Below, piece by piece: positions 12,401 to 57,361 of a stretch of DNA of 64,000 bases (positions are counted from its first letter, which is position 1; each line of letters starts with the position of its first letter). The notes below the pieces were generated by a model that was not told where the DNA came from, ran no database searches, and saw only the letters and a program-made list of their open reading frames with translations. The position numbers and the translations under genes were made by a program. Source of the DNA: a virus; UHGV virus genome UHGV-0371537. One strand, written 5' to 3'.

Positions 12401-13909
12401 ATGGCAGACGTTCAGATTGTTAAGGTTAACGAAGTCCGCATGCGTTGCATCGCAGATCTTTCTATCAGGGAAGAGCTGAACGATTACTTCAAATTCGAAG
12501 ACCCCAATTACACACCAAATCCATTCTCGAAATGGGATGGAATCGTTCGCCTTTTCACCAAGTCGTCCGGCCTCATCGATATCGGTCTCCTGTTCGAGGT
12601 TTTTAAATTCTGTAAGCATCACGGATACACAGTTGAATTGGACCCGGCGCTGAAGTACATACAGGACATCCCTGATGAAGAGATCTATGAATTCATCAAC
12701 AGCCTACACGCCAAAGTACGTACAGAAAATCATGAGTACATCGATGCGATCACCCGTGATTACCAGTTCGACACGATAGCCAAGGCGATGCGTCAAACCA
12801 GATGCGTCTGCGAACTGGCTACGAGTGCCGGGAAGTCCTTTGTTCTGTATGTCATGGCGCGGTACTACAGGCAACGCAGAGAAGCCCTAGAAAGCAATCT
12901 GAGGACGCTTATCGTGGTGCCGTCAATCCACCTGGTTACACAGCTGTACGACAACTTCGAAGAATACTCCCACGGCACTGACTGGAAGCCAGTTGTCCAC
13001 ACTCAGCTGATCTTTGAGGGGGCAACCAAGAACATCACCAAGCCGATTGTCATCAGTACCTGGCAGGGCATACAAGACCAACCGAAGGAGTGGTTCCACC
13101 AGTTTGGCGACATCGTTGTGGATGAAGTACATACATCCAAGTCCGAGAAGCTGTCCTACATCCTCAACAATTGTATCTACGCCGACCAGCGTCTGGGCGT
13201 GACGGGTACGCTGGCAAACACCAAAGTCGCTGGGCTTCAGGTGGTGGCTCACTTCGGCACTTATCACAAGATCATCACGGCTCGCGACCTTATCAATCTT
13301 GGGTACGCCACTGACATCAAGGTCAAGATGATCGAGCTGAAGCACACCATCGCTGACGCAATGACTCTTGACGGGGAGTACAGCAAGGAAATTGAATATC
13401 TTATCACCCATCAGTCGCGAAACGAAGTGATTGCGAAGATGGCGCTGAACCTCAAGGGGAATGTTGCTGTTATGTTCGAGCGTATTGACGCCCACATGAT
13501 GGTAGTGTATGAGATGCTGAGCGCAGTAAAGCCAAACGTGTTTGTCATCAACGGTGAAGTGAAGATCGAAGATCGTCGACGCATTCAGAAAGCGATGGAA
13601 GATGGCGAGGATATCACGTTGCTGGCTTCTTACGGGACAATGCAGCAGGGTGTTTCAATCAAGAAGTTGCATCACCTGGTACTGGCCCACCCGAGCAAGT
13701 CATATATCCGTGTCATACAGACATTGGGTCGTCTGATGCGTCAGCACTCCTCTAAGGATGTGGCATGGATCTGGGACTTAGTCGACAATGCGTCGTATAA
13801 AGGATCCCAGAACCACGCTGTGAGGCATTCGCAAGAGCGATACAAGTTCTATCTGTCTGAGCGCCACCCAGTAGAATTCATGAAAGTGGCGCTCGGTAAT
13901 CACGATTGA
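12401..13909 (+). CDS. uvsW: UvsW-like SF2 DNA helicase
   Basis: Aligns to recalled T4 UvsW: ELATSAGKSFVLYVMARYY, WQGIQDQPKEWFHQFGDIVVDEVH, HHLVLAHPSKSYIRVIQTLGRLMR; start at ATG 12401 (GGGAGA RBS). Confidence 0.85.
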   Translation: MADVQIVKVNEVRMRCIADLSIREELNDYFKFEDPNYTPNPFSKWDGIVRLFTKSSGLIDIGLLFEVFKFCKHHGYTVELDPALKYIQDIPDEEIYEFINSLHAKVRTENHEYIDAITRDYQFDTIAKAMRQTRCVCELATSAGKSFVLYVMARYYRQRREALESNLRTLIVVPSIHLVTQLYDNFEEYSHGTDWKPVVHTQLIFEGATKNITKPIVISTWQGIQDQPKEWFHQFGDIVVDEVHTSKSEKLSYILNNCIYADQRLGVTGTLANTKVAGLQVVAHFGTYHKIITARDLINLGYATDIKVKMIELKHTIADAMTLDGEYSKEIEYLITHQSRNEVIAKMALNLKGNVAVMFERIDAHMMVVYEMLSAVKPNVFVINGEVKIEDRRRIQKAMEDGEDITLLASYGTMQQGVSIKKLHHLVLAHPSKSYIRVIQTLGRLMRQHSSKDVAWIWDLVDNASYKGSQNHAVRHSQERYKFYLSERHPVEFMKVALGNHD

Positions 13910-14277
13910 TCTTGGTTCACATAGGCGGGGGTTGCCTCGCCTTCTTCACCCGCTGCGCCGAACAATTTGTCCAAAGAAGCCAGGCACTGAGAATTCAGAT
14001 GTTCACTAATCGTGTCTTTCAACGTTCGTTCGCTGTCTAATTTGAACGGCAACACCTTCGCTTCAATGCCGTTTTCAAAGGTGACAACGCCGATGTACAG
14101 ACCAACTTTCATGCCTGTCATCAAGCCAAGAGGCACAAAGCGCGGCTCCGATGGTAAGTTCTTGTCTGACGCCAGCTGTGCCAGATAAACTGGAGTTCCG
14201 GTAACAAACTCTCCTGCGGTGAGGATGGCATCTGGCTTGCTGCATCCCACTGCGTACAATCCTACAAACTGTTTCAT
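13900..14277 (-). CDS. hypothetical protein (minus strand)
   Basis: 125-aa ORF with ATG at 14277, non-repetitive composition; only long ORF in a region with no + strand coding; weak RBS. Confidence 0.4.
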   Translation of the reverse strand: MKQFVGLYAVGCSKPDAILTAGEFVTGTPVYLAQLASDKNLPSEPRFVPLGLMTGMKVGLYIGVVTFENGIEAKVLPFKLDSERTLKDTISEHLNSQCLASLDKLFGAAGEEGEATPAYVNQDQS

Positions 14278-15368: not shown

Positions 15369-16025
15369 ATGAGGAATCAACCGTTTGTATATCATTTGTT
15401 AGGAAAGGATGGTTCTTTCTATTTTGGTTCTAGAACGAAATTGGGTGCGCATCCTTTACAATTGTTCACTTCGTATTTCACTTCTTCACAAACGGTCAAG
15501 GAAATCATATCTAAGAAAGGTTCTGATTTCTTTGATGTGATATTTGTAGAATTGTTCGACTCTCCAGAAGATGCATATTGGAGAGAGCAGCAGTTGATTA
15601 GTGAGAACATTGATCACCCAAAATGTTTAAACAAATCATTTCAACCACTGGGTTGTGGTATCGCCAACGGTAGGTCAGCGGGACCCAAACATCACCGAGT
15701 TGGTGTCTCGAGTTGGTTGAAGGGTAAGTCTGGGAATCTTCATCCCATGCACGGAAGAACTGGTAAAAGCCACCCCGCCGCAGGAATAAAACCCTGGGAC
15801 ACCGGGGCTGCGCTGCTACACAACACCAGACCGATGTGGTTAAAGGCTGGGGTAGTGTATGATCACTGGGTTTCTACTGGTGATGGGTGCCATAGAATTG
15901 CCCGTTTGTTCTCTATCAAAGAGAACACCGCAACGAGTATGTTAAACAAATTCAAAGAGGGCTGGAACCCGTATGATGACGACGCTTGGGTTCTGTTCTG
16001 TAAACTATATCATGGAAATACATAA
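15369..16025 (+). CDS. GIY-YIG family homing endonuclease with NUMOD3-like repeats (seg-like)
   Basis: FVYHLLGKDGSFYFGSR (GIY-YIG-like), GKSGNLHPMHGRTGKSHPAAG (NUMOD3-like); inserted between gp45 and gp44; AAGAGG RBS. Confidence 0.65.
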   Translation: MRNQPFVYHLLGKDGSFYFGSRTKLGAHPLQLFTSYFTSSQTVKEIISKKGSDFFDVIFVELFDSPEDAYWREQQLISENIDHPKCLNKSFQPLGCGIANGRSAGPKHHRVGVSSWLKGKSGNLHPMHGRTGKSHPAAGIKPWDTGAALLHNTRPMWLKAGVVYDHWVSTGDGCHRIARLFSIKENTATSMLNKFKEGWNPYDDDAWVLFCKLYHGNT

Positions 16026-18893: not shown

Positions 18894-20093
18894 ATGAAAG
18901 ATAAAGCCCTGGACGTCCCGTACTGCGGTGTCCGCGAAGAAAAGATAAAGTCGGCCAAACCGGTTCTCAGTCCGACCCATACCCGCCTGTCTTATGACTG
19001 GATGAGCGAGCGCTATAAGATCCACGTTCGAAAGGACGTCCAGCGTCTTCCTGCTCCTTGGACGAATAATCCTATACTACGGCAGGTCAAGTTCTGTAAC
19101 GTCCGGAGAGAGCACGACAGGCAGTCTCTTAACCTGATCAACAACATCGTCAACAACGATGCTCTGGGTATGGCAGACAAGATGTTTAACTGCGTGCTGT
19201 TCCGCATGTTCAACCTCTGGGATCCGATCCAGGCTATCGGCGGCGCGATGACGATCAAAGAATTCGCCAAGATTAATCTTGACGCAACCCGTGAACGACT
19301 TCAGAAGTTCGAGGCTGACGGTGGTAAGGTATTCACCAATGCCTTCAACACAGGCGGCCTGAAGCAATGCCTGGCTTTCCCTGAGATGGTTGTCAACCAC
19401 AAGGAGCAGCTCTTCGGTGGGATGATGGTGAAAGTGTATCGCGTTGGCCAGGGTATTGTGGACGAGATGGACTACAAGGTCGCCAAGAAGCTGGTCGAAG
19501 AGAATCCTGGTGAATATACCATCGAGGGATGGGAACCGTACATGCCAATGCGTGTCATCCGTTCCCTGAAGGCATTCGTCAACAAGTATCCAAATTACTT
19601 CCATGACCTGCTGCGCCTTGGTACTCCTCTGGAAGTATACCAGCGCATGTACGACGACATCGAAGGGCTTGGTCCATTCCTGGCTTATCAGATCTGGGTG
19701 GACTTCACGTACATTCCTGAGTATCCGTTTAGTGAGAACCACTTCACGGTTGCTGGACCAGGCTGTCGTGCAGGCATCGACCTGATGTTCCTGAACAAAG
19801 ACGGTATGACCCACGAAGAATGCATCTTCTGGTTACGGGACAACCAGGACGCAGTGTATTCCCAATATGGATATGTTCGTGAGCAATTCTGGTCTGCGGA
19901 AGAGCCTTGGGATCAGTGTATGAATGTTCAACAATTAGAAAACCACTTTTGTGAATTGTCGAAATATACCCGTTGTGTAGAGGCTTTACAGCAAGGTAAA
20001 AAACCGCGCGGGAAGGTTGGATACGATGGGGAAGGACAACCTAAAGCGGCGACATCTGGTTCTAAAAACCTACTAAATTTATTTAAAAAGTAA
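18894..20093 (+). CDS. hypothetical protein (conserved-looking, function unknown)
   Basis: 399 aa, AAGAGGA RBS, preceded by terminator hairpin; no motif I can assign. Confidence 0.5.
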   Translation: MKDKALDVPYCGVREEKIKSAKPVLSPTHTRLSYDWMSERYKIHVRKDVQRLPAPWTNNPILRQVKFCNVRREHDRQSLNLINNIVNNDALGMADKMFNCVLFRMFNLWDPIQAIGGAMTIKEFAKINLDATRERLQKFEADGGKVFTNAFNTGGLKQCLAFPEMVVNHKEQLFGGMMVKVYRVGQGIVDEMDYKVAKKLVEENPGEYTIEGWEPYMPMRVIRSLKAFVNKYPNYFHDLLRLGTPLEVYQRMYDDIEGLGPFLAYQIWVDFTYIPEYPFSENHFTVAGPGCRAGIDLMFLNKDGMTHEECIFWLRDNQDAVYSQYGYVREQFWSAEEPWDQCMNVQQLENHFCELSKYTRCVEALQQGKKPRGKVGYDGEGQPKAATSGSKNLLNLFKK

Positions 20094-20123
20094 CTTACTT
20101 TGTGAGTTAAGAAAGTATATTAT

Positions 20124-20152
20124 AACAGGAACTTTCATTTGGAGTTCCTGTT
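20124..20152 (+). promoter_or_regulatory. RBS-sequestering hairpin ahead of the HNH homing endonuclease
   Basis: Perfect 10-bp inverted repeat AACAGGAACT / AGTTCCTGTT (loop 9 nt) encloses the GGAG Shine-Dalgarno and ends at ATG 20153. Confidence 0.5.
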
Positions 20153-21082
20153 ATGTTTTACGAATTATTGATTTCTAAAGGCGGTAAACCGCATTTTATC
20201 AAGAAGTATTTGAGGATGGTTCAATCTTTCAAATATTCTGATAGTGACTACACTGAATTACACCACATCCTTCCCAAGAGCATGTTCCCTGAATATTCTA
20301 AAGATAAGATAAATTTGGTTCGATTAACAGGCAGACAACATTATCTTGTCCATGTATGCTTGGCCTTGGCTTTCCCAAACACGAGAATGGTGTATGCTGT
20401 TGTAGCTATGAGAAAGGGAGGAAGAAGAAATAAATCAGGTATTCGGTTTAATTCTCATTTGTATGAAAGTTTCAGAATTAAATTCAGCGAACAACTATCT
20501 TTACAATGGAAAGGGGTTTCTCGGTTTGTGGGTAAAGACAACCCAATGTATGGGAGAAGAGGAAAGAATAATCCCCAATATGGGTATAAGAGAACTCCAG
20601 AGCAAGTCAAGAAAATTACCAAAGGATTGATGAAAATCCATGAAAGGATGGCTTCTGATCCGGAATATAAAAGAGAAGTTTTAGAGCAGCGTCGTACCAA
20701 TACGGATTTAAAGCAATTTTCTGAGCGTTCCCGCCAAGCAAAACTCGGTGAACTCAATCCTAATTATGGGAAGGACTTAACCAACTCTTTCACACCGGAA
20801 CAACGCGCCAAACAGAAAGAAAACGCTCAGAAAGGCATGTTGGCTAAGATGCCTTGGGAGAAGGGTAAATGGAACCCCGACAATGACGTATATTGGGAGA
20901 AAGCTGATCAATTCCTTGAAGCCCTGAATACGATGAAACGTTCAGAAGCCCTCTTGTTCGTGTATGGAACAAAAGATCTGAAGGCGTTTAATGCCACCAG
21001 TGGGATAATCGAACGTTTCAATAAAGGCTGGGAACCATTAAAATGCGTAAAATGGTTAAAAAGATATAAGGGTGAAAAATGA
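20153..21082 (+). CDS. HNH family homing endonuclease with NUMOD repeats (mob-like)
   Basis: ELHHILPKS...NLVRLTGRQHY (HNH), GKDNPMYGRRGKNNPQYG and NPNYGK NUMOD-like repeats; RBS inside a 10-bp hairpin. Confidence 0.75.
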   Translation: MFYELLISKGGKPHFIKKYLRMVQSFKYSDSDYTELHHILPKSMFPEYSKDKINLVRLTGRQHYLVHVCLALAFPNTRMVYAVVAMRKGGRRNKSGIRFNSHLYESFRIKFSEQLSLQWKGVSRFVGKDNPMYGRRGKNNPQYGYKRTPEQVKKITKGLMKIHERMASDPEYKREVLEQRRTNTDLKQFSERSRQAKLGELNPNYGKDLTNSFTPEQRAKQKENAQKGMLAKMPWEKGKWNPDNDVYWEKADQFLEALNTMKRSEALLFVYGTKDLKAFNATSGIIERFNKGWEPLKCVKWLKRYKGEK

Positions 21083-21303
21083 GCTGGAAATTGTTCAAAC
21101 TGTGTAAAGCGACTGATGAGTTTCTTCTGAAAGCCCGTATGGAAGGACGTCTCGTGTACACTCCTTACCCAGGCACTATTCGGTTTTGTAGTACGTTGAG
21201 GAAACAGAAATCAGTTTCTGGGCCAAGACGTTTGTTGATGCAGGGGATGCTGGCATACAACTCCGGTGATACTCGGCCTTGTGACGGTGGTAAGATCGTC
21301 TGA
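21079..21303 (+). CDS. hypothetical small protein, 4-nt overlap with the HNH gene
   Basis: 74-aa ORF starting in ATGA overlap with the homing endonuclease stop; may travel with the endonuclease. Confidence 0.35.
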   Translation: MSWKLFKLCKATDEFLLKARMEGRLVYTPYPGTIRFCSTLRKQKSVSGPRRLLMQGMLAYNSGDTRPCDGGKIV

Positions 21304-31380: not shown

Positions 31381-31830
31381 ATGTTCATGTCTTCCTTCAT
31401 AGACTGGTTGAACATTATCAACGGCCTGAGGATTCCTGTTGGAAATCTCGGGCTTTCTCGTTCTTCTATGCCACAGATTGACGATGACAAGCAGCAGGCG
31501 TTCCATGACTACCTGGAGGAACTCGGCATCACTATCGATGCTGGCCAGGTTCCTATCAAATCGCTCCGTCTCACCCAGAACGAAATCAACAAGATGAAGG
31601 TCTGGAAGATCATGAAGAACATTCGAAACAAGAAGCCGATGGGTCGGGTTTGGGTGTCTTCTGACAATTATGTGGTCGACGGCTCCCACCGCTATGTTGC
31701 TGCCCTGAACATGGATGATCGCCAGCGCATCAAGGTCTACAAAGTGGACATGCCAGCGATGGAGTTCGTCAAGGTTGCCAAGCAGTTCAAGGGTGTGAAG
31801 TTCAGAACTGTATCTGATGCCCGATACTAA
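31381..31830 (+). CDS. ParB/sulfiredoxin-like N-terminal domain protein (ParB-like nuclease domain)
   Basis: YVVDGSHRYVAA resembles the ParB-family DGxHR motif; GAGGTG RBS before ATG 31381. Confidence 0.5.
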   Translation: MFMSSFIDWLNIINGLRIPVGNLGLSRSSMPQIDDDKQQAFHDYLEELGITIDAGQVPIKSLRLTQNEINKMKVWKIMKNIRNKKPMGRVWVSSDNYVVDGSHRYVAALNMDDRQRIKVYKVDMPAMEFVKVAKQFKGVKFRTVSDARY

Positions 31831-54284: not shown

Positions 54285-54330
54285 GTAACTCACCAACACT
54301 CCCCGCCGCCTTCAATCTACGAGGGCGGCG

Positions 54331-54336
54331 TATAAT
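54331..54336 (+). promoter_or_regulatory. -10-like TATAAT box ahead of the HNH endonuclease
   Basis: TATAAT directly after a 7-bp GC hairpin (54304-54330) and 18 nt before ATG 54354. Confidence 0.3.
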
Positions 54337-54353
54337 ATGTTCCGAGACTAATC

Positions 54354-55013
54354 ATGAATTATCAAAATATCTATGACTCTCTGATACAAAGAGCCAAGAC
54401 CCGTTCATTGGTTGGTTATTCTGAAACCCACCATATTATCCCTAGATGTATGGGAGGGAAAGATGACAAACATAATCTGGTGGAGTTGACACCAGAAGAA
54501 CATTATTTAGCACATCAATTGTTAGTCAAAATATATCCCAAAAATTTCAAATTAGCATTTGCAGCTAATGCTATGTGCGTAAACAATGAATTCTCCGGTA
54601 GATCTTGTAACAAATTATTCGGTTGGTTGCGGAGAAAACTTTCTCATTCCAATAAACAGATGTACAAAGACAACCCTAATTTGAGGAAAATTCGTTCCGA
54701 TCAAATGAAACAGACACATGTAAAGTATTCTCATTTGCGGGAAATACAGTCTAAACGTTTGAAGGAAAACAATATATGCGTGATAAAACAACCTTGGGAA
54801 AGTAACCATGCCACCAAAGAGTCTTTGGATATATGGAAACGCGCCGACGAATATTATGATTGGTGGTTGTGCAACCAAAAAGGTTGCACGTTCATGGCGA
54901 AAGCGTTTGGGTTCAAAAACAAGACGACTCCGCATTTCACAATGATTAATAAATTTAAATCTGGGTGGAATCCCAAAGCCGACCCAGAGTGGTTAGAGTT
55001 TGTAAGTCAATAA
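54354..55013 (+). CDS. HNH family homing endonuclease (mob-like)
   Basis: YSETHHIIPRCMGGKDDKHNLVELTPEEHYLAH (HNH); inserted between phoH and nrdA; C-terminal NKFKSGWNP motif shared with two other endonucleases. Confidence 0.75.
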   Translation: MNYQNIYDSLIQRAKTRSLVGYSETHHIIPRCMGGKDDKHNLVELTPEEHYLAHQLLVKIYPKNFKLAFAANAMCVNNEFSGRSCNKLFGWLRRKLSHSNKQMYKDNPNLRKIRSDQMKQTHVKYSHLREIQSKRLKENNICVIKQPWESNHATKESLDIWKRADEYYDWWLCNQKGCTFMAKAFGFKNKTTPHFTMINKFKSGWNPKADPEWLEFVSQ

Positions 55014-55072: not shown

Positions 55073-57361
55073 ATGAGCGAAATTAACGTCATTAAGCGGG
55101 ACGGATCTTCTGTCCCCTTTGATATTGAGAAACTACACGCAGTCGTAGACCGCGCATGTGACGGCCTGCCTGGTGTATCAATGTCAGAGGTGATCGCTGC
55201 ATCGAAGATTCAGTTCACCGACAACATGAGAACAGATCGCATTCAGGATATCCTCATCCAGGCTGCGGCTTCGCTGATCTCTGTAGACAAACCCAATTAC
55301 CAGTATGTGGCTGCTCGCCTGAAGTCATATGATCTGCGCAAGGCTGTCTATGGCCAGTACAAGCCGCCTCACCTGCTGGATATCTTCGTCAAGAACATCA
55401 AACAGCGTGTGTATGATCGTGAGTTCCTTGATCTCTACACGACCGAAGAGTTCAACGAGCTGAACGATGTTATCAACCACAAACGTGACAAGAACTTCAC
55501 CTGGGCGGCCATGGGTCAGCTGACAGAGAAGTATCTGCTGCGTGACCGTTCCAAGAAGGACAGCAAGATCTTCTATGAAACCCCACAGGTCATGTACATG
55601 GGCATCGCCATGGCGTTGTTCTCCAACTGGGACAAAGACAGCCGCCTGGATATGGTGAAGAAGTTCTATGAATATGCCAGCACAGGCAAGTTCAGTCTTC
55701 CAACCCCGATTATGGCAGGCGTTCGTACTCCTACCCGTCAGTTCAGTTCCTGCGTGTTGATCAAAACTGGTGACACCCTGGACTCTATCAACGCAACAGC
55801 CAAGACCATCGTTGACTATGTGTCCAAACGTGCGGGTATCGGCTTCGACATCGGGGCGATACGTGGGATTGGTAGTCCTATTCGCGGCGGAGAGATGGTT
55901 CACACAGGCCTGATCCCATTCATCAAGTATCTCACTGGGGCGCTCAAGTCTTGCTCCCAGGGCGGCATTCGTGGTGGTGCAGCAACAGCTTATATCCCTC
56001 TGTGGCATTACCAGTTCGATGACGTCGTTGTACTGAAGAATAACCGTGGCACTGAAGAAAACCGCGAACGCCGTATCGACTACGGTATTCAGATCAACCG
56101 CGTGATGTTTGAGCGCCTGGTTGCCAAGCAGCCTCTGTATCTGTTCGACCCGAAAGACAACCGCGAAATGTACGAAGCATACTTCTCCGACGTCGACAAG
56201 TTCCGTACTCTGTATGAGAACATGATCAAGGCCGCCGATGCTGGTCTGGTACGTTCTAAGAAGCTGCAGGCTGAAGAAGTGTTCCAGATGCTGTTAGACC
56301 AGCGTTCAGACACAGGCCGCATCTACATCGCATTTGTCGATCACATGAATGAATACAGCCCATTCAACCTCGACACGATCTACAGCTCCAACCTGTGTCT
56401 TGAAATCGCCCTGCCGACCCGTGAGTTTGAGCAGTACAACGATGAAAACGGGCGCGTGGCTCTGTGCACCCTGGCTTCCTTTAACCTGACGGCGTTCGAA
56501 GACCCGACTGAGATGGAAGACGTGGCGTTTGTGTTGGTGTCTGCGCTGGACATGCTGTTGGAATATCAGGACTATCCGGCAATCCAGGCTCGTAAGGCTG
56601 TTGAGGATTATCGCCCTCTGGGTGTTGGTATCGTGAACGTGGCTCACTTCTTGGCCAAGAACTTCACAGGCTATGGTTCTCCGGCTGGTCTTGAGATGTT
56701 GGATGCGTGGATGGCACACCTGCACTACTATCTGGTCAAGGCATCCAACCGTCTGGCGATGAAGTTCGGTGCATGCAAACGTGGAACCATCCACAATAAT
56801 GGGCAGGTCACTGCCGATCTTCAGCCGCTTCCACTTGATATCCTGCCGAATGGTAAGAAACCGGAAGGCATGGCATACGGCCTGGATTGGGAAGAACTGA
56901 AGGATGATCTGAAGACCTATGGTATCCGCAATGCCACCCTGCTGGCAGTAGCCCCTACCGAAAGCTCCTCACAAGTCCTCAACGCAACGAACGGCATTGA
57001 GCCACCGAAGGGCTTGGTAAGCATTAAGGGCAGCAAGGACGGCACGTACAAGCAGGTCGTTCCGGATGTAGAGACCCTTGGACCGCTGTATGACCTGAAG
57101 TGGGACCTGGAATGCATCGAGTACCTGAAGACCGCTGCTGTCATCCAGCGCTGGGTTGACCAGTCCATCAGTACCAACACATGGTATGACCCAGAGAAGT
57201 ACCCTGACGGCAAGATCCCTCGTGCTAAGATGATGCAGGATATCCTGTCGTTCTATATGTGGGGTGGTAAGACTCTGTATTACAACACGAACAAGGACGC
57301 CAAGGAAGACGAAGAGCTGAAACAGGCTGATGCCGTGGAATGTGAAAGTTGTATCGTGTAG
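55073..57361 (+). CDS. nrdA: ribonucleotide reductase large subunit (class Ia NrdA)
   Basis: 762 aa; N-terminal ATP-cone (VIKRDGSSVPFDIEKL), catalytic region SSNLCLEI..., C-terminal CESCIV tail. Confidence 0.9.
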   Translation: MSEINVIKRDGSSVPFDIEKLHAVVDRACDGLPGVSMSEVIAASKIQFTDNMRTDRIQDILIQAAASLISVDKPNYQYVAARLKSYDLRKAVYGQYKPPHLLDIFVKNIKQRVYDREFLDLYTTEEFNELNDVINHKRDKNFTWAAMGQLTEKYLLRDRSKKDSKIFYETPQVMYMGIAMALFSNWDKDSRLDMVKKFYEYASTGKFSLPTPIMAGVRTPTRQFSSCVLIKTGDTLDSINATAKTIVDYVSKRAGIGFDIGAIRGIGSPIRGGEMVHTGLIPFIKYLTGALKSCSQGGIRGGAATAYIPLWHYQFDDVVVLKNNRGTEENRERRIDYGIQINRVMFERLVAKQPLYLFDPKDNREMYEAYFSDVDKFRTLYENMIKAADAGLVRSKKLQAEEVFQMLLDQRSDTGRIYIAFVDHMNEYSPFNLDTIYSSNLCLEIALPTREFEQYNDENGRVALCTLASFNLTAFEDPTEMEDVAFVLVSALDMLLEYQDYPAIQARKAVEDYRPLGVGIVNVAHFLAKNFTGYGSPAGLEMLDAWMAHLHYYLVKASNRLAMKFGACKRGTIHNNGQVTADLQPLPLDILPNGKKPEGMAYGLDWEELKDDLKTYGIRNATLLAVAPTESSSQVLNATNGIEPPKGLVSIKGSKDGTYKQVVPDVETLGPLYDLKWDLECIEYLKTAAVIQRWVDQSISTNTWYDPEKYPDGKIPRAKMMQDILSFYMWGGKTLYYNTNKDAKEDEELKQADAVECESCIV

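Follow-up and report, generated by a model that had tools for sequence, protein, structure and literature searches.

Three homing endonuclease genes in a 64,000-nucleotide (nt) stretch of the virus genome UHGV-0371537 (the window) raise the question of whether the short motif near their C termini marks a common module, whether such a module passes between nucleases of different families, and what it does. The window covers the replication and nucleotide-metabolism region of a Vi1-like phage (Ackermannviridae), and the three genes, called A, B, and C here, each encode a free-standing homing endonuclease of an Agtrevirus-like member of that family. The three genes, with their domains and motifs, and the hairpin and small ORF described for the gene B locus lie on the + strand. 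A preliminary description of this DNA held that three enzymes of different catalytic families share a C-terminal NKFKxGWNP motif, and it proposed that a DNA-binding or partner-binding module had been exchanged between them.

Two types of nuclease head share a homologous C-terminal domain

The three open reading frames (ORFs), their coordinates, and the C-terminal strings quoted for them (MLNKFKEGWNPYDDDAWVLF, IERFNKGWEPLKCVKWLKR, and MINKFKSGWNPKADPEWLEF) were recovered exactly as first described. Gene A (positions 15369 to 16025) encodes a protein of 218 amino acids (aa) assigned to the GIY-YIG (Seg-like) type, and genes B (20153 to 21082; 309 aa) and C (54354 to 55013; 219 aa), the latter located between nrdA and the terminator of phoH, encode Mob-type HNH proteins, so that the catalytic families number two (GIY-YIG once, HNH twice) and not three. 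Each protein has three parts, namely, an N-terminal nuclease head, a helical or extended linker, and a common C-terminal domain of about 75 to 84 aa.

The head of A gives only weak matches to the Pfam models GIY-YIG and SegE_GIY-YIG (E value of about 0.025, 15 bits, under the cutoffs). It matches phrog_314, annotated “homing endonuclease,” over residues 1 to 208 (E = 8.6e-15), is clearly homologous to the head of the GIY-YIG enzyme F-LimVI of phage LIMEstone1, and has a cluster representative that falls within the group taken by iterated GIY-YIG profiles. Proteins B and C match phrog_655 (E = 2.3e-63 and 4.3e-66, respectively), and their heads show the pattern ExHHIxP...N...H...H; 20 homologues all keep the residues E24, H26, H27, P30, N41, H50, and H54. 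The Pfam HNH model scores 18.1 bits on C, against a cutoff of 21.4, and AlphaFold2 (AF2) predicts for this head two strands and a helix (beta-beta-alpha) with a predicted local distance difference test score (pLDDT) of at least 91.

The motif reads NKFKEGWNP in A (15945 to 15971) and NKFKSGWNP in C (54948 to 54974). The exact form does not extend to B, which reads RFNKGWEP (21014 to 21037), so that the common motif stands for all three proteins in a relaxed form only. The six-frame translation of the window (127,996 residues) contains the pattern F[NK]xGW[NE]P three times, once each in A, B, and C, against an expectation of 0.0014 from residue frequencies (Poisson probability of three or more, about 5e-10). 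The similarity reaches well past the motif, to about 72 to 88 aligned residues. By BLASTP, the C-terminal parts (tails) of A and C align over 72 residues with 36% identity (E = 4e-15) and those of C and B over 88 residues with 26% identity (E = 2e-5). The alignment of A with B (E = 2e-3) is confined to about 32 residues around the motif, which is the one result that would suit chance or convergence of unrelated C termini. Against that explanation, a single profile matches all three proteins over about 75 to 81 residues with E values from 1e-20 to 2e-31, and together with the A-C alignment and the motif expectation this practically rules it out. Searched with the 80-member family profile, the window yields exactly these three ORFs (E = 7e-29, 7.5e-25, and 4.3e-18; next best, 0.08).

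Within this homologous C-terminal domain, conservation is highest at the motif, and the alignment and profile searches bear out the proposal that one module sits on different nuclease cores. The hmmsearch envelopes place this domain at residues 134 to 216 of A (15768 to 16016; E of about 2e-27 to 4e-27), residues 226 to 309 of B (20828 to 21079; E = 1.3e-20), and residues 139 to 219 of C (54768 to 55010; E = 2.2e-31). It is distinct from the known linker element NUMOD3: Pfam recognizes NUMOD3 in the linker of B (residues 136 to 155, positions 20558 to 20617; PF07460, E = 6.4e-5, 23.2 bits against a cutoff of 20.4), outside the shared domain and about 70 residues upstream of it, and finds no NUMOD3 in A or C. 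The idea that the motif belongs to NUMOD3 was rejected on this ground.

The domain family and its architectures

A profile search (hmmsearch, E ≤ 1e-3) against 1.84 billion representatives placed the domain in at least 317 protein clusters, the best 150 of which were analyzed further; iterated head profiles covered all 150 and a Pfam scan covered 146. By the head profiles, 66 carry GIY-YIG heads, 33 carry Mob-HNH heads, and 51 fall into other classes, comprising an HNH_3 protein, a divergent HNH-like class, unrecognized heads, and short stand-alone copies. The Pfam scan found NUMOD3 in 40 of the 146, GIY-YIG-type models in 19, 9, and 7, and HNH models in at least 13. The domain occurs in two to four tandem copies in 34 of the 146 domain-bearing representatives. 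Among cultured phages it is present in 153 records, mostly of Ackermannviridae, and also in the T4-like SP18 (“SegG”), Vibrio phage phi-pp2 (“MobE”), and Rhizobium and Variovorax phages.

Some of the unrecognized heads resemble one another. Representatives P0015, P0018, P0038, P0094, P0110, P0117, P0121, and P0124 (about 200 to 260 aa) carry the tail on an N-terminal domain that has no Pfam match, reads …FTLTFEEYLYKAYEAGL…YQLARYKDxGDYxxDNCRFIT, and weakly matches HNH/endonuclease PHROGs; judging from this similarity, it may be a further class of nuclease head. P0092 and P0115 have yet another unrecognized head.

No Pfam model covers the shared domain in the three proteins or in 80 domain sequences, and no NCBIfam model covers it in the three proteins. 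The only library entries that capture it are PHROGs 25551, 26163, and 7504, annotated merely as “homing endonuclease,” and these match A and C only in the shared domain. As judged from these sequence libraries, the domain belongs to no curated family.

Replacement of the nuclease head at the gene B locus

Exchange of the domain across the boundary between GIY-YIG and HNH nucleases is directly visible in relatives of the phage. In LIMEstone1, the position of B, directly after the homologue of ORF115, is taken by F-LimVI (ORF114; cluster representative P0004), whose first approximately 90 residues are of the same GIY-YIG subtype as those of A. F-LimVI and the B protein are 61% identical over 176 residues, near-continuously in the last approximately 110, and the shared domain alone is 78% identical at the amino acid level. 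The DNA of the two phages shows the same by blastn: identity is 85% upstream, the heads are unrelated (20037 to 20735), the 3′ part of B, with a NUMOD3-like element and the shared domain, is 81% identical to that of F-LimVI (20736 to 21066), and identity downstream is 83%. The pattern therefore describes one locus in three states, i.e., empty, with an HNH head on the tail, and with a GIY-YIG head on the tail. F-LimVI is thus like B in its locus and its tail and like A in the subtype of its head (PMC3296691, Table 1), and it differs from B in having a GIY-YIG instead of an HNH head and in lacking the 74-aa ORF that follows B. Such a swap on a kept tail is a natural experiment that suggests how different nuclease families reach the same genomic site.

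Across the family, 16 of 91 domains have their closest relative on a protein of the other nuclease family, and other cross-family pairs of tails reach about 54% identity. One such pair, the GIY-YIG protein P0023 and the HNH protein P0013 (tails 54% identical), was followed in search of a second case of the same tail with another head at the same locus, and none was established; P0023 has no match in cultured phages. P0013 was considered as an occupant of the C site and rejected, being located upstream of phoH in Klebsiella phage UPM 2146.

The exchange first proposed for the three proteins of the window is accordingly found in relatives and not, as a recent event, among the window's own tails. 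These are only 25 to 36% identical to one another and are for that reason regarded as old paralogues rather than products of recent mutual swaps.

Conservation and predicted structure of the domain

The domain has the signature PW...W..AD..Y..W...G......F........(K/R)F(K/R)xGWxP..D..W, to which A, B, and C conform. Positions P9, W10, W23, A26, F63, G66, W67, P69, D72, and W75 are near-invariant, and 79% of the members have basic residues at positions 62 and 64. The domain as a whole is basic, with a median isoelectric point of 9.4 and a net positive charge in 91% of 171 copies.

AF2 was run on residues 139 to 219 of C with the 80-sequence alignment and gave a model with a pLDDT of 91.8. It consists of five helices (17 to 24, 26 to 36, 40 to 46, 54 to 64, and 73 to 80) in a tryptophan-rich bundle, with the motif at the C-terminal end of helix 4 and in the following turn. 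Variability among paralogues is high in helix 3 and in helix 4 up to its middle (column entropy of about 3 bits or more). In the model of full-length C, the head (1 to 73) and the tail (147 to 219) are confident and are joined by long helices of lower confidence with a hinge at 139 to 142; the predicted template modeling score for the whole is 0.55. This combination points to independently placed domains in a beads-on-a-string protein.

Comparisons with solved structures gave little. A PDB sequence search returned noise with a single tail (SH3YL1, E = 0.9) and with the 80-sequence profile (RsgI3, E = 0.62), Foldseek found no PDB match under E = 2, and a Foldseek search of BFVD yielded homologous phage endonucleases alone, with no different fold among the annotated entries. 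A single weak Pfam match recurred, in 6 of 80 domains, to the helix-turn-helix (HTH) of the Sleeping Beauty transposase, and the fold and Pfam resemblances, all weak, are without exception to HTH DNA binders.

Function of the domain

Taken together, sequence, model, and analogy suggest that the tail probably binds target DNA beside the insertion site and tethers the nuclease head near the cleavage site. It would thereby hold the head close to the cut, following the logic of head, linker, and DNA-binding tail known from I-TevI and I-HmuI. In this scheme, the core would be formed by the aromatic and Gly/Pro residues that are invariant (PW, W, AD, Y, W, F, GWxP, D, and W), contacts with the DNA backbone would probably fall to the two basic residues in (K/R)F(K/R), and specificity for a sequence would come from the variable helix 3 together with the N-terminal half of helix 4. 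Since the head and the tail are predicted to fold independently, the head would be replaceable on the same tail, and recombination between endonuclease genes would put a different nuclease on it, as has happened at the B locus. DNA binding is favored because of the architecture, the tandem arrays, the basic charge, and the HTH-like resemblance, and also because the putative reading surface is variable and the tail was kept at one locus after the head was swapped. Arrays of one to four copies are as expected for DNA-reading beads on a string.

A different role is suggested by the motif itself. The surface-proximal (K/R)F(K/R)xGWxP and several tryptophans are near-invariant across loci, which fits a common ligand better than diverse DNA, and the PDB sequence and fold searches gave no significant likeness to any solved DNA-binding domain. 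The tail could accordingly be a protein-protein or dimerization module that recruits a common replication or recombination factor or pairs nicking HNH enzymes, with the target read by the linker or NUMOD3 and the head. We consider this improbable, given the one to four tandem copies per protein, the positive charge in 91% of the copies, the HTH DNA binders as the sole weak resemblances, and a position and architecture in common with the DNA-binding tails of I-TevI and I-HmuI (PMC2988022). Moreover, the hosts are very diverse (enterobacteria, Vibrio, Rhizobium, and Variovorax), and a single conserved partner is unlikely in a family that spans phages of such different hosts.

Binding to DNA without sequence specificity, with the tail as a general anchor or as a reader of, e.g., modified bases and with specificity provided by the linker and head, would account for the same conserved basic residues and aromatic motif in enzymes of different loci. 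It would also suit the T4-like and Ackermannviridae phages that carry the domain, which are known to have modified bases. Nevertheless, this is unlikely, too: helix 3 varies strongly, as does helix 4 in its first half, tails within one genome are only 25 to 36% identical, the tail at one locus is 78% conserved across genera even after replacement of the head, and the family extends to Vibrio, Rhizobium, and Variovorax phages.

Several points weigh against specific binding of target DNA by the tail. Conservation peaks on the putative recognition helix, where variation might be expected in a module that reads different sequences, and a common partner could explain this equally well; the strong conservation of the motif likewise leaves room for a common-partner function or a nonspecific anchor. 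The predicted “turn” between helices 3 and 4 has seven residues, longer than in a canonical HTH. In situ replacement of the 5′ half of the gene can explain the swap at the B locus, which therefore need not mean that the tail determines the target. What was observed directly is the homology of the tails, the distribution of the family, the fold prediction, the presence/absence polymorphism, and the head swap; from there we infer DNA binding, the residues that would contact DNA, and the tail as the part that sets the target.

A further-reaching version of the DNA-binding reading, which we put forward tentatively and rather doubt than hold, sees in the tail a self-contained DNA-reading module of new structure, in effect a fifth “NUMOD,” that would work as a portable address label. 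Arrays of one to four copies would read longer sites, and any head (GIY-YIG, Mob-HNH, HNH_3, or others) could be recombined onto it with the target unchanged. If true, this would account for the repeated occurrence of unrelated endonuclease families at shared sites in T4-like and Vi1-like phages, and it would provide a new small scaffold for engineered site-specific nucleases.

The three loci and their surroundings

The genes are sporadically present: A, B, and C each have a precise empty site in close relatives, beside conserved genes, as was found by the comparison with endonuclease-less phages that the preliminary description had called for. Gene A is absent from ChubbyThor and LIMEstone1. 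It is inserted exactly between the ribosome-binding site and ATG of the clamp-loader gene and the second codon of that gene, with a junction exact to the codon. The clamp-loader gene of ChubbyThor starts ...GAGGCTGAAATG/TCTAAT (the slash marking the junction), and the window has a 654-nt endonuclease ORF between ATG and TCT. A TAATG stop-start overlap at the end of A restores the clamp-loader start.

The B cassette is absent from ChubbyThor, where about 200 nt correspond to positions 19908 to 21299 of the window. A perfect 15-bp RNA hairpin (20121 to 20155, identified by folding) covers the GGAG Shine-Dalgarno sequence and the AUG of B; its predicted energy is −22.3 kcal/mol (z = −5.1), and none of 200 shuffled sequences was as stable. 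This hairpin resembles those that sequester the ribosome-binding site and delay translation of the T4 intron endonucleases (precedent reviewed in PMC2988022), and by this analogy, it likely serves translational control of gene B. An A/T-rich TATATTATAA stretch overlaps its 5′ arm. The small ORF of 74 aa that overlaps the stop codon of B (21079 to 21303) belongs to phrog_19743, of unknown function. It occurs only with the HNH allele, being absent from LIMEstone1, with the GIY-YIG allele, and from ChubbyThor, with the empty site.

Gene C is absent from Ag3, SKML-39, MK-13, and others. The insert takes the place of a 35-nt spacer after the phoH terminator and of the first nrdA codons. The start of nrdA differs accordingly, reading MSEINVIKR in the window (55073 to 55090), where the endonuclease is present, versus MINVIKR in the endonuclease-less Ag3. 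Just upstream of C, phoH is followed by a strong terminator-like hairpin and then by TATAAT (54300 to 54340). The changes around the insertion, in the nrdA codons and the phoH-side elements, could provide target-site immunity. Some relatives have another HNH endonuclease with the same tail directly upstream of phoH (Ag3 orf00096; UPM 2146, 13336 to 14040), and in UPM 2146 phoH is bracketed by two endonucleases with the shared tail.

A fourth site is occupied in ChubbyThor by gp150 (OL615013, 107658 to 108488), which combines a B-type HNH head with the same tail domain (E = 8e-17); the window has the empty site at about 31802 to 31830. A regular-expression scan of the window for more HNH or GIY-YIG genes found none besides A, B, and C, the remaining matches being spurious.

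The best database match varies with the endonuclease locus in a mosaic pattern. The C locus matches that of Shigella phage ChubbyThor, of the genus Agtrevirus, with 97% identity, and the best matches at the A and B loci are Salmonella phage pSal-SNUABM-02 and PMBT18/Escherichia phage AV101, respectively, each with about 92.6%. This mosaic is consistent with independent horizontal movement of the three cassettes. Phages of the Vi1-like group are rich in such genes, and LIMEstone1 carries 14 homing endonucleases (PMC3296691).

Comparison with known systems

Homing endonucleases drive gene exchange among phages, and monomeric ones such as I-TevI serve as parts for genome editing. The modules NUMOD1 to NUMOD4 reportedly go back to Sitbon and Pietrokovski (2003). 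Sharing of DNA-binding modules between the GIY-YIG and HNH families, such as NUMODs and the tails of I-TevI and I-HmuI, is well documented (PMC2988022, PMC1564403). A, B, and C appear to follow the design principle of I-TevI and I-HmuI, in which a linker with the minor-groove helix NUMOD3 connects a catalytic head to a small helical DNA-binding domain (PMC2988022, PMC1564403); the shared domain has no detectable sequence or profile similarity to these enzymes.

The common architecture of nuclease, NUMOD3-type linker, and C-terminal helical domain, along with the helical prediction and its weak HTH-like matches, could mean that the domain is a very divergent NUMOD1 or I-TevI-type HTH and nothing new. 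The comparisons make this very unlikely. NUMOD1 (PF07453) has no match in A, B, or C at E ≤ 1 and does not appear in the list of families for the 80 domains, NUMOD4 has no Pfam match in either set, and hhalign of the family profile with T4 I-TevI gave a probability of 0.2%. The profile search of all PDB sequences, presumed to include I-TevI and I-HmuI, returned nothing at E ≤ 0.6. The NUMOD1 model has 37 positions; with 75 to 84 aa, five helices, and a tryptophan-rich core, the shared domain is about twice as long as NUMOD1-type modules. The reservation that the motif might be a common feature of a known NUMOD or HTH module was thus answered in the negative for the NUMODs of which Pfam holds a model (NUMOD1, NUMOD3, and NUMOD4; NUMOD2 has none) and for the I-TevI-type HTH. 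The HTH of Tc1/mariner-type transposases (HTH_SB, Mos1, Tc3, and SETMAR) stays below significance in all scores, and the shared domain differs from it by extra N- and C-terminal helices; to our knowledge, its GWxP turn has no counterpart there.

The closest characterized relatives are in T4. A search of T4 alone with the family profile found SegG (GIY-YIG, gene 32.1; E = 3e-12), which contains ...KYFNSGWIPLEDPEY..., and gp60.1 (E = 1e-4), with marginal partial matches in MobD and SegA and nothing in MobE or in I-TevI, -II, or -III. The protein gp60.1, annotated as hypothetical, carries the tail domain (…FNEFKRGWIPDE), contains ...EFKRGWIPDE, and is encoded just downstream of the disrupted mobA reading frame. 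Because of this position, and because MobA has been reported to be pseudogenized in laboratory T4 (bioRxiv 10.1101/2022.08.31.505936), gp60.1 appears to be the C-terminal remnant of the HNH endonuclease MobA. Both SegG and MobA have documented activity on the genes that they target, 32 and 39 (PMC2988022). They are like A, B, and C in having the same C-terminal domain, in being free-standing, and in lying beside genes of DNA metabolism, and they differ in their loci (gene 32 and gene 39/60), their family (Straboviridae), and their domains, which are about 30% identical. The C termini of the T4 Mob proteins have been called “distinct” and “presumably the DNA-binding domain,” and the shared domain is unnamed there (PMC2988022, PMC2790892). 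The DNA-reading part of the Seg and Mob enzymes, so far “presumed,” now has a defined candidate in this domain, with at least 317 clusters that include T4 SegG and the MobA remnant, and studies of binding and structure can start from it.

The nearest precedent for the evolutionary behavior of the family is provided by the T5orf172 homing endonucleases of Vibrio phages, which have repeated DNA-binding modules and in which recombination swaps binding regions and nuclease domains (Barth et al. 2023, PMC10448857). That case involves another nuclease family and CapR-type zinc fingers, whereas the exchange described here crosses the boundary between GIY-YIG and HNH. Since modular, shuffled DNA-binding tails and domain swapping among endonuclease genes were already established (PMC1564403, PMC2988022, PMC10448857), the present finding adds to this principle rather than overturning it: what is new is a module family for which Pfam, NCBIfam, and the PDB have no counterpart and which fits into the modular build already known for homing endonucleases.
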